From the IMG/VR virus record IMGVR_UViG_2711768067_000015: a stretch of 32,307 nt of DNA; one strand, 5' to 3'. Shown here one piece after another: positions 620 to 30,763 of this stretch. Made by a program: the position numbers and the translations under genes. Within the stretch, counting starts at the first letter, position 1; every line of letters begins with the position of its first letter. Below the pieces are notes generated by a model. It had not been told where the DNA came from, made no database searches, and was given only the letters and a program-made list of their open reading frames with translations. The stretch is from a virus (taxonomy: Duplodnaviria > Heunggongvirae > Uroviricota > Caudoviricetes).

Positions 620-1195
620 TTGTGGGGCGACTGGCCACTCAATATCCGCTGCTACTGTTGTATCAACACGATTCAACAATACCCGATATGTCTTCCATGC
701 AGCCAGTAACGATGCCTCTTCCTCCGTCGCAATATCCAAATCTACGGCATCCTGAAGTGGCGCAATATGCTCACTGGCTACCTGCATCAGGCTGTTTTTT
801 GTTTCTTCCGCCTCCTGGATCCGGAACAGTTTTTCTGCTTCTGCATCTTTCACCCAGGATGTACCGTTCCACTTCTGAAACTCCCCTTCCGGGGATAACC
901 AGGTGACATTTTCCGGTAATGGGCCAAGTTCAGAAATAAATAACGCGTCGCCAGAAGCCACGTCATAGACGGTTTTACCCCGATGGTCTTCAACGAGATG
1001 CCACGATGCCTCATCAGTGTTGAAAACAGCCACGAAGCCAGCCGGAATATCTGGCGGTACAATATCGGTACTGTTTGCAGGCAGACCTGTATGAGGTGGA
1101 ATGTATGCATCACCTTCACCAATAAATTCATTAGTTCCGGCCAGCAGATTATAAATTTTTATGGTCTGTGGTTGTTCACTCATTCTGAATGCCAT
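617..1195 (-). CDS. tfa: Tail fibre assembly protein (Tfa-like chaperone)
   Basis: 192-aa ORF directly downstream of the tail fibre gene with overlapping stop/start. N-terminal sequence [34 protein letters not shown] matches my recollection of enterobacterial prophage Tfa proteins. Confidence 0.85.
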
Positions 1196-24632: not shown

Positions 24633-25100
24633 TCATCGAAGGCATTGCATCCTGATGTATTCCTGAAGCGCTCTCAGTGCTGTTTGGTCGCGGATAATTC
24701 CGTCCCGGATACCGAGAACGTTTCGTCCAGCAACTGGAGAGAGTTCGACGGAGGCATCATTGCCCATGCCGGAGGCGCTGGAGGTTTCGGCTGAGGATGG
24801 CACAGGGCATTTTCCTTTGACGAGCACCCTGCCACCATTATCAAGCTTGCGCCGAAGAGCATCATTTTCAGCTTTCGCATCAGCTAACTCCTTCGTGTAT
24901 TTAGCATCGAGTGCATCAGCATCACGCTGGCGCTGCTGCATGTCAGTAATGGTGGCGTTCGCCTTCTCCAGTTCACTGGCCTTGTTATCGCGCTGCTCTT
25001 TGTAGGCGATTGCGTTATCACGGTAATGATTAACAGCCAATGACAGGCAGACGATGATGCAGATAACCAGAGCGGAGATAATCGCGGTTAACCGACTCAT
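24633..25100 (-). CDS. Rz: i-spanin Rz
   Basis: From the internal start [19 protein letters not shown]... there is an N-terminal transmembrane helix, then a coiled-coil-like charged region. Rz1 is embedded in the +1 frame. The track's longer ORF starts at 25229. Confidence 0.75.
24674..24880 (-). CDS. Rz1: o-spanin Rz1 (lipoprotein embedded within Rz)
   Basis: 68-aa ORF entirely inside Rz in another frame, with lipobox LIMVAGC and a Pro-rich mature part ([11 protein letters not shown]). Confidence 0.75.
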
Positions 25101-25188: not shown

Positions 25189-25686
25189 TCATTGTTGCCC
25201 CCACAAACAGACTTCACGCTCAATCTCACGACGAGTCATCAGACCTTTCCATTGCTTACCGCCAGCGTATGTCCAGCGACGTAGCTGATCACATGCGCCT
25301 TTGATATCGCCCTGGTTGATTTTGCGCAGAAGCGTCGATGTTCTGAAATTGCCAGCACCCACGTTGTAAACGAATGAGTAAAGAGCGCCGCGCGTTGTTT
25401 CCGGTATATCGACTTTGATGTACGGGTTAATTTGTCTGGCTACCGTGGCAAGGTCTTTATTCAGGAGGGCTTTGCATTCTGCTTCGGTATACGTTTTACC
25501 GGGAATGATGTCTTTTCCTGTATGCCCGTGACATACAGTCCATACGCCAACGATATCTTTGTATGGTATGTAGCTGACACCTTCCAGACCATCGTTACCA
25601 CCTGGACCAGTGATTAACACTGATGCTATAGCAATAGCCCCGCCACCAATAGCAGCTGCAACAGCTTTTCGTAATGATGGAGGCAT
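25189..25686 (-). CDS. R: SAR endolysin (phage-21 R-type lysozyme)
   Basis: 165-aa ORF with an N-terminal Gly/Ala-rich signal-anchor-release segment ([18 protein letters not shown]), directly downstream of the holin with ATGA overlap. Confidence 0.85.
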
Positions 25687-25901
25687 TATTCACCTCTCGC
25701 AGCCTTTCTTCTGTCTTCTCTGATTTTGAAGTACAGATTTGTCAGATAAGTCAAAAAGCCCAGAACTAGACTTCCCAGCACACCAATTGCAGCCCACTGT
25801 GACGGACTGACCTGATCCAACCACTTTAAAAACCAGTATCCCGCACTACCAGCGGATGTTCCGTAGGCAATGCCAGTAGAGATTTTGTCCATTGATTTCA
25901 T
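25686..25901 (-). CDS. S: Pinholin (phage-21 S-type, class II holin)
   Basis: 71-aa ORF with a dual-start motif (MKSM), two transmembrane segments and a charged C-terminus; a near match to phage 21 S as I recall it. GGAGG ribosome-binding site upstream. Confidence 0.85.
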
Positions 25902-26019
25902 AGCAACGCCTCCGCAAGTAACGGATTGCGTAGTTCTTATATTGGGAAGGGAGAAAAAGAAGGCCGCAGCGTAACTATCACTGATGAGTTCAGGATAGCC
26001 AGTGGCTACAGCTCAGTTA

Positions 26020-26095
26020 TGGTGCTGGTTAACGGACTTGAACCGCTACCCATTCGCTTACAAGGCGACTGCTCTACCATTGGAGCTAAACCAGC
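26020..26095 (-). tRNA. tRNA-like gene, anticodon UGU (Thr), CCA encoded
   Basis: Hand-folded cloverleaf: perfect 7-bp acceptor stem (GCTGGTT/AACCAGC), D-arm GCTC/GAGC with GG in the loop, anticodon loop CUUGUAA, T-arm with TTCAAGT loop. There is one mismatch in the anticodon stem, and position 14 is C rather than the conserved A. Confidence 0.6.
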
Positions 26096-26100
26096 ATATT

Positions 26101-26175
26101 TGGCGGGACAGCGTGGACTCGAACCACGATAAGAAGGTTAACAGCCTTCCGTAATGACCTTTATACGACTGACCC
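26101..26175 (-). tRNA. tRNA-like gene, anticodon GUU (Asn-like), possibly degenerate
   Basis: Perfect T-arm (CGTGG-TTCGAGT-CCACG) and anticodon arm (GAAGG-CUGUUAA-CCTTC), but one U-U mismatch in the acceptor stem and a weak D-stem. Confidence 0.45.
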
Positions 26176-26266
26176 AAATAAAAAAAGCCACCGTTGCAAC
26201 TTAAGAGTCACTAACGGCAGCTTATGCCAATAGTGTTGCTCATTTGCTCAATGATGTCAACACGTT

Positions 26267-26755
26267 CTATGCTACATGTTTAATTTTCTCTACACGTTTC
26301 CGATTTTTAAACGCACTATCCAGAACCGGGTAAATCATAAACAACGAGGCATTAAGGATTTCGTCAACTTCCCGTCGACAGGTTGCGAGCGACGGTTTTT
26401 GAATGCGCCCGCCGCCACGGCATAACATCTTGCGAGGTCTTGCGACGCGATGATAGTAAGATGCAATGGCGTGCTTGGAAGAGCCATGAGCGTAGTAGCT
26501 GAGGAGGATTCCAAAGGCTTTCTTGTCAATGTACATGACGGAATCGACGACCTGAGAAATCAACATTCCATCATCATCATTACACATTGGCCTTGTCATA
26601 ACTCTTCCCGGCTCTACGCTCTCCATGAACTTCGCTATTACGCTGCTCATGCGCTTTTCCAGACGACCTGAATAAACCCATGCGCCCCACAGTTCAAGCC
26701 AGCCATTCAGCCACTCATGCTGTTCTTTGGTGAGGTTTAGTTCTCTTATGCCCAC
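26267..26755 (-). CDS. Q: Late gene antiterminator Q (phage 82/933W type, not lambda-Q type)
   Basis: 162-aa ORF directly downstream of ninI. Motifs ELWGAWV and [13 protein letters not shown] resemble 82-family Q proteins as I recall them. Start is GTG in the track. Confidence 0.7.

Positions 26756-28367: not shown

Positions 28368-30763
<2,396 letters not shown>

Follow-up and report, generated by a model that had tools for sequence, protein, structure and literature searches.

Two tRNA genes in the phage 21-type late leader of a lambdoid prophage and their probable relation to tRNA-cutting nucleases

[quoted passage not shown] We consider it highly probable that both are functional tRNAs of a phage 21-type late leader, with tRNA-Thr acting as a replacement that resists the P2 nuclease OLD and tRNA-Asn likely playing a parallel part. 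The observation is correct, and the pair is already known; the role of tRNA-Thr in the contest between mobile elements has also been published already.

The tRNA pair and its place in the late leader

The earlier note had proposed two adjacent minus-strand tRNA genes between Q and the holin, and an ARAGORN run gave both of them exactly, in coordinates and anticodons, as the only tRNA genes of the 32.3-kb window, namely Thr(tgt) and Asn(gtt). Rfam agrees. With cmscan, both genes match RF00005 over its full length (model positions 1-71 of 71); tRNA-Thr scores 61.5 bits (E = 3.5e-11) and tRNA-Asn scores 55.3 bits (E = 1.7e-9), the latter being 26 bits over the gathering score of 29 bits. The features of the region are as follows, in the order of late transcription.

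26267-26755 (-): Q21-type late antiterminator gene; Pfam Phage_antitermQ, E = 8.8e-25; 98.0% identity to phage 21 Q
26225-26260 (-): late promoter pR', mapped from the phage 21 record OL657228
26255-26260 (-): -35 element of pR', TTGACA; 100% identity to phage 21
26237-26252 (-): Q-binding element (QBE), ATTGAGCAAATGAGCA; 100% identity to phage 21
26232-26237 (-): -10 element of pR'; 100% identity to phage 21
26225 (-): transcription start; 100% identity to phage 21
26218-26224 (-): sigma-dependent pause element, overlapping tR'; 100% identity to phage 21
26176-26223 (-): late-leader terminator tR', curated in phage 21; 100% identity
26101-26175 (-): tRNA-Asn(GUU), 75 nt including the encoded CCA; ARAGORN and Rfam
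26096-26100 (-): spacer of 5 nt between the tRNA genes, from the sequence
26020-26095 (-): tRNA-Thr(UGU), 76 nt including the encoded CCA; ARAGORN and Rfam
25944-26012 (-): long hairpin with a U-rich tract, in the 118-nt spacer from tRNA-Thr to S21
25686-25901 (-): S21 class II holin (pinholin/antiholin dual start); Pfam Phage_holin_2_1 'Bacteriophage P21 holin S', E = 4e-35
25189-25686 (-): R21-type SAR endolysin; Pfam Phage_lysozyme, E = 5.8e-46; 96.0% identity to phage 21 R
24633-25100 (-): Rz-type spanin; Pfam Phage_lysis (Rz), E = 2e-29

The Pfam matches to Q and to the P21 holin S thus confirm where the pair lies. The Q-holin interval holds no credible open reading frame, only plus-strand frames antisense to the tRNAs, which bears out the remark in the earlier note that no toxin-like frame is found there. 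The flaws it had listed were also read directly from the sequence. In tRNA-Thr, a C stands at position 14 in place of A14; tRNA-Asn has two mismatches, U4·U69 in the acceptor stem and U13·U22 in the D-stem. In addition, cmscan flagged a G27·A43 mismatch at the top of the anticodon stem of tRNA-Thr. The conserved tertiary nucleotides (U8, A14, G18G19, U33, purine 37 and the T-loop GTTCRANYC) are all present in tRNA-Asn, and A14 is the one missing from the set in tRNA-Thr. The C14 is kept in the 21-type variants, while the relatives in N4, P1 and CMS have A14; it does not prevent function, since an identical tRNA-Thr rescues in published work.

Both genes would also be charged as their anticodons suggest. 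The asparaginyl-tRNA synthetase of E. coli recognizes G34, U35, U36 and the discriminator G73. The window tRNA-Asn, with the anticodon loop CUGUUAA and G73 followed by CCA, carries all four of these together with U33 and A37, and is a predicted acceptor for Asn. For the threonyl-tRNA synthetase, the identity set comprises G35, U36 and the acceptor pairs G1-C72 and C2-G71. The loop CUUGUAA and the acceptor stem GCUGGUU/AACCAGC of tRNA-Thr provide these, and it is likewise a predicted acceptor for Thr.

The leader in which the pair is embedded follows the curated gene order of OL657228: -35, QBE, -10, start, pause element, tR', tRNA-Asn, tRNA-Thr and S21. The tR' hairpin folds at -20.2 kcal/mol (z = -6.1), seven U in a row come after it, and the end of tR' directly abuts the first base of tRNA-Asn. 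The first late gene past the tRNAs is S21 (92.6% identity to phage 21 S). By this arrangement the pair fits a phage 21-type late-leader cassette, lying past the tR' of a Q21-type pR' and before the first lysis gene; being placed between tR' and S21, it should therefore be made only when Q antiterminates. A consensus promoter scan upstream of the tRNAs gave no separate site, which is weak evidence because the same scan overlooked the curated pR' and tR'.

The spacer between tRNA-Thr and S21 also holds a strong structure. The fold of 25895-26022 (minus strand, 128 nt) reaches -38.5 kcal/mol (z = -4.0). The hairpin at 25944-26012 precedes the ribosome-binding site of S21. It carries no annotation in phage 21, and at the equivalent place in phage L a terminator is annotated; it may serve to terminate the leader a second time, or help to process the 3' end of tRNA-Thr. 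According to the phage L authors, excision of the tRNA from the late mRNA is not known (PMC8022706).

The match with phage 21 is close. The tRNA-Asn gene is identical at 75/75 positions in phage 21, Sf6 and phage L, and the tRNA-Thr gene is identical at 76/76 positions to that of phage 21, which is the published 'tRNA-Thr21'. HK446 and the window agree at 166/166 positions across the pair region. An alignment of some 270 bases that takes in the tRNAs and the late-control elements shows only three substitutions between the window and phage 21, all of them outside the tRNAs and the control elements, including one at 26098 in the inter-tRNA spacer. The flanking genes are less alike than the control elements (92.6-98.0%), and the 1.1-kb region as a whole matches phage 21 at 96.6% identity and many E. 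coli prophages at 99%. Phage 21, HK446, Sf6 and SfI have the same pair in the same order of Q, pR', tR', Asn, Thr and S. On the other hand, the flanks of the window prophage differ from the phage 21 type, with a tail module of the myovirus type and, in ninB, an insertion of the IS21 family.

This IS21-family element of about 1,954 bp occupies 28724-30677 and has imperfect terminal inverted repeats starting with TGTCA. It encodes IstA with an rve domain (28810-29832) and IstB (29832-30611), and sits in the 5' end of ninB on the opposite strand, so that the Pfam match of NinB begins at profile position 25. With the replication genes on one side of it and Q on the other, it could lower the expression of Q, the tRNAs and the late genes in this prophage.

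The pair is widespread. It is annotated in phage 21, Sf6, SfI, JLK-2012, SPN9CC and others, and is discussed in the SfI paper, where the ACA bias is noted and the role of tRNA-Asn is called unclear (PMC3636060), as well as in the phage L paper (PMC8022706). In the HK446 record (NC_019714.1, 35092-35257) there is no feature annotated beneath the 166/166 match, and the description of HK446 as a single-tRNA phage in a 2026 preprint is in accord with this gap. Prophages of 369 out of 5,426 complete E. coli genomes contain the pair, with the PGAP labels tRNA-Thr and tRNA-Asn. With the cassette present in about 7% of complete E. coli genomes, it may shape prophage induction and superinfection in strains bearing P2 or P4.

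The content of the cassette varies around a constant Asn gene. Among 120 viral contigs from IMG/VR, 96 have Asn-Thr, 7 have Asn-Gly(UCC) and 4 have Asn-Phe(GAA)-Thr-Arg(UCU), plus several further combinations; tRNA-Lys(UUU) is absent from every cassette variant in these 120 contigs. The cassette Gly(UCC) gene has 95% identity to host glyT and keeps the CNG motifs, and Gly(UCC) is among the OLD targets reported in the preprint (10.64898/2026.07.10.737580). One contig (L120, 1279-1512) shows Asn, then a chimeric tRNA-Thr whose first 25 nt are of the phage 21 type and whose last 51 nt are those of E. coli thrU, and 3 nt further on a Gly(UCC) gene near-identical to host glyT. On the host chromosome tyrU lies between thrU and glyT, and it is missing in this contig. 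The arrangement suggests that a phage tRNA gene has recombined with host ones.

A tRNA cluster in a lambdoid late leader is not confined to the phage 21 type. In Stx-phages of the 933W type, the tRNA genes ileZ-argN-argO lie between Q/pR' and stx. Like the pair, they follow Q and precede cargo or lysis genes; they differ in being rare-codon readers for Ile and Arg, in the Q type and in the toxin cargo, which the window lacks. An ileX gene near stx2 is cited in the SfI paper (PMC3636060).

tRNA-Thr, the OLD nuclease and codon supply

Published work on OLD bears directly on the tRNA-Thr gene. Govande et al. 2025 found that P2 OLD is the effector of the classic P2-lambda interference, and that it kills by cutting the host tRNA-Thr(UGU) thrU, a single-copy gene and the sole reader of ACA, at two anticodon-stem sites after the C of paired CNG motifs (PMC12445682). 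In the same study, tRNA-Thr21 of phage 21 guards cells and withstands OLD cleavage by means of a shorter anticodon stem and C28U/G42A, and protection by the related rescue tRNA-Thr6 needed the UGU anticodon (PMC12445682). From the preprint, the Thr(UGU) tRNA of HK446 is a strong counter-defence that restored plating of the OLD-sensitive phages HK97, HK542 and Bas34; alone it did not rescue lambda, and HK446 also needs the protein inhibitor Oad2 (10.64898/2026.07.10.737580). An extra host thrU gives no protection against OLD while the phage tRNA does (PMC12445682; 10.64898/2026.07.10.737580), and therefore the sequence differences between the two matter.

The earlier note had raised the idea that prophage tRNAs serve as decoys against anticodon nucleases. 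The part concerning nuclease defence is upheld by the experiments on an identical tRNA-Thr. A decoy or competitive-inhibitor mechanism is ruled out for tRNA-Thr, as the phage tRNA persists without sparing host thrU from degradation, which indicates replacement (PMC12445682; 10.64898/2026.07.10.737580). In other words, a P2 prophage kills lambdoid-infected cells through their only ACA-reading tRNA, and phages of the 21 type bring a copy that is cut-resistant and late-timed.

The window tRNA-Thr has GUCGC at positions 27-31 and GCGAA at 39-43, with 27 and 43 unpaired, so that UCG and CGA stand where the host has CUG and CAG, and this matches the description in PMC12445682. By the altered CNG motif and the shortened stem, it is predicted to fall in the OLD-resistant class of tRNA-Thr21. 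The tRNA-Thr of P1, unlike that of the window, keeps the paired CNG motif and the full 5-bp stem. Apparent defects such as G27·A43, and possibly the mismatches of tRNA-Asn, can be adaptive, which calls for caution before a pseudogene is declared from flaws in a cloverleaf.

The mechanism we propose is as follows. The leader would be transcribed from pR' and the tRNAs reached only upon Q-driven readthrough of tR', so that they would appear together with the late mRNA for lysis and virion proteins. They would be freed from the late transcript by RNase P and the 3'-processing enzymes of the host, with the CCA already encoded. In lambdoid-infected cells OLD would cut the anticodon stem of thrU and ACA decoding would be lost; the phage tRNA-Thr, escaping OLD through C28U/G42A and the stem shortened by G27·A43, would restore it. 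The tRNA-Asn would most likely act in parallel, as a cleavage-resistant stand-in for host tRNA-Asn(GUU), as a supply for AAC-rich virion genes, or both. Owing to their late expression, the tRNAs cannot aid the translation of early genes. A Q gene that shuns ACA would agree with late expression of the tRNA; this was looked for and not seen, as Q has one ACA.

The main competing explanation is that the tRNAs do nothing except raise the pools for codons over-used in the late genes, nuclease resistance being incidental. ACA accounts for 21.5% of the Thr codons (14.7 per thousand) in the 29 late genes that follow the tRNAs. Textbook codon tables for E. coli give about half this value. With ACA at about twice the typical E. 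coli level, tRNA-Thr therefore adds decoding capacity even without defence; the single-copy thrU as sole ACA reader is in favor of such a benefit too, as are the 6 ACA among the 16 Thr codons of S21 and R21. Other cassettes add Arg(UCU) and Gly(UCC), readers of the rare AGA and GGA. Similar figures for ACA were given for SfI, 17.3 vs 7.1 (PMC3636060), and in the capsid gene of phage L 24 of 25 Asn codons are AAC (PMC8022706), compared to 14 AAC and 5 AAT in the putative capsid gene here.

Against this, Asn codons show no skew in the late genes (52% AAC), and the host already possesses several tRNA genes for Asn. Two rare codons, AGA and ATA, are enriched as well in the late genes here without matching tRNAs. 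For Thr, over-expressed host thrU fails against OLD where the phage tRNA protects. The suggestion of codon compensation in the earlier note is thus supported for Thr and not for Asn: codon supply can add to the case for tRNA-Thr and does not explain tRNA-Asn. As the sole cause of the pair we regard it as doubtful, although still a serious candidate.

It is improbable that the pair serves mainly in RNA processing, with the tRNAs as RNase P and 3' sites that detach the pR' leader, terminator hairpin included, and set late-mRNA stability or the timing of lysis. The start of tRNA-Asn immediately after the U-tract of tR', the further strong hairpin between tRNA-Thr and S21, and the conserved position of a cassette whose tRNA content varies would all suit such a role. 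However, the strict conservation of anticodon loops and identity elements is needless for a processing signal alone, the protection by tRNA-Thr6 required its anticodon (PMC12445682), and lambda, P22 and many other lambdoid phages lack a tRNA at this place (PMC8022706).

State and role of tRNA-Asn

The earlier note had taken tRNA-Asn to be degenerate, possibly a pseudo-tRNA or a non-canonical RNA, and the evidence contradicts this reading. In its favor are the two non-Watson-Crick pairs, U4·U69 and U13·U22, and a centroid fold in which the D-stem is not formed. The 120 viral contigs, all with the D-arm signature of tRNA-Asn, comprise 21 sequence variants of the gene, and covariation was analysed on 19 distinct full-length variants. 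Six pairs are altered on both sides, with 90% of the cells paired; examples of compensatory change are 6-67 (A-U to G-C), 7-66 (G-C to A-U) and 28-42 (A-U to C-G). For tRNA-Thr, eight pairs are altered on both sides and 95% of the cells are paired. None of 500 shuffles reached the covariation score of either tRNA, and slid controls gave 0-3 pairs (0-2 for Asn).

The mismatches themselves are retained in the same variants: U4·U69 is kept in 17 out of 19 and U13·U22 in 19 out of 19, and they are therefore conserved features and not signs of decay. For comparison, G27·A43 is kept in 22 of the 24 tRNA-Thr variants. The anticodon loop, G73, G18G19, T-loop and CCA of tRNA-Asn are intact, ARAGORN accepts the gene, its Rfam score is well above the gathering score, and it is identical in phages of E. 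coli, Shigella and Salmonella and, over the pair region, in HK446. In the P22-like phage L, the Asn gene is kept intact while its neighbor has degenerated to a 72-nt remnant that ARAGORN rejects. Taken together, score, invariance across genera and covariation rule out the pseudo-tRNA reading, to which we would give hardly any weight, and tRNA-Asn appears to be a normal, chargeable tRNA under purifying selection.

The phage L remnant (L006, 1286-1357) is labelled 'tRNA-Leu(TAA)'. Its acceptor and D-arm are common to the 21-type tRNA-Thr, but the anticodon arm is another one and the variable region is very short; the copy has either degenerated or been re-purposed. As for origin, the 21-type tRNA-Asn resembles host glyT (69% identity) more closely than it does host asnT (62%) (26101-26175 against L004 674-748), and its D-arm GUAUAA.GG..AUUAC with U13·U22 is common to the unusual D-arm of glyT. 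This may hint that tRNA-Asn was derived from a Gly(UCC)-like scaffold through a change of anticodon.

Neither of the two OLD studies mentions the phage tRNA-Asn. It was overlooked although OLD and PARIS both cut the corresponding host tRNA: OLD cleaves host tRNA-Asn(GUU) more slowly than thrU (PMC12445682), and for AriB of PARIS it is a secondary but biologically relevant target beside Lys(UUU) and Thr(UGU). The determinants of AriB are a U36-A-A-U39-C40|A/C41 site and U16, and those positions alone do not fully decide cleavage. The relevant positions of tRNA-Asn compare as follows.

Positions 28-30: host asnT CGG (CNG motif); phage tRNA-Asn AAG
Positions 40-42: host asnT CCG (CNG motif); phage tRNA-Asn CUU
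Positions 36-41 (AriB site): host asnT U36AAUCC; phage tRNA-Asn UAACCU
Position 16: host asnT U; phage tRNA-Asn A

At the AriB positions the window tRNA-Thr has UAAGCG and A16, and the host has UAAUCA and U16. Both window tRNAs have thus lost the AriB site and U16, and by these determinants they are predicted to belong to the AriB-resistant class. We found no published test of the lambdoid pair against PARIS.

These differences carry no statistical case for adaptation at the determinants of tRNA-Asn, and such a case was dropped. With only 62% identity to asnT, one would expect 4-5 stem positions to differ anyway, and the paired CNG motif (CAG/CUG) is back in the Klebsiella-type variants of this Asn gene. 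The tRNA-Asn of P1 retains the AriB site (UAAUCA). Moreover, as tRNA-Lys(UUU), the prime target of AriB, is missing from the cassettes, the pair cannot fully neutralise PARIS.

The pairing of the two specificities recurs outside the lambdoid phages. P1, N4 and the plasmid-phage CMS-2020a have the same anticodons in the same Asn-then-Thr order, and their Thr genes are 81-87% identical to that of the window; their Asn genes are from another lineage with 58-63% identity. Hence, across lambdoid phages, P1, N4 and a plasmid-phage, two unrelated Asn(GUU) lineages each precede a related Thr(UGU) gene, and this points to some functional coupling of both specificities. In P1 the genes lie in the C1-controlled ban operon region, so that context and regulation are unlike those of the window.

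A further parallel is phage T5, which encodes its own versions of the tRNAs that a Toprim tRNase attacks, altered at the cleavage site or close to it; neither the T5 versions nor those of the window have U at position 39. T5 differs in being virulent and in having about 24 tRNAs, including tRNA-Lys, compared to a pair without Lys in a Q-controlled late leader, and the lambdoid genes are only 61-64% identical to those of T5.

We put forward, tentatively, that tRNA-Asn(GUU) could be a second nuclease-resistant replacement, and the late-leader cassette a device dedicated against the Toprim tRNases of competing P2 prophages (OLD) and of P4 satellites (AriB of PARIS). We hold this wider proposal with much less assurance than the role of the pair stated at the outset. 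If it is true, the extra cassette members Gly(UCC), Arg(UCU) and Phe(GAA) would track the target lists of the nucleases, and the independent recruitment of two Asn lineages would reflect selection by nucleases that hit both tRNAs.

The least probable explanation, that the tRNAs make up for a host tRNA gene broken by prophage integration, was raised as a possibility for HK446 (10.64898/2026.07.10.737580) and recalls the integration of the relatives SfI and phage L into thrW (PMC3636060, PMC8022706), but it is ruled out by the att-site context and the anticodon mismatch: in a near-identical prophage in NZ_CM136170 the integrase adjoins ybhC with no tRNA gene annotated at the junction, thrW reads ACG (anticodon CGU) and not ACA, thrW-integrating phages rebuild an intact thrW (PMC8022706), Q-dependent late expression is useless to a lysogen, and the virulent N4 has a related Asn...Thr set.

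Other features at the left end of the window

Two further observations concern the tail-fibre region. Rfam gives a match to 'IS009' of 199 bits at 654-852 (minus strand), wholly within a tail-fibre assembly gene at 617-1195 (Pfam Caudo_TAP), and it probably represents conserved coding sequence and not an independent small RNA. Next to the tail-fibre genes, an open reading frame at 97-573 runs on the opposite (plus) strand and has hexapeptide-repeat transferase motifs; judging from these, it may be an acetyltransferase moron.
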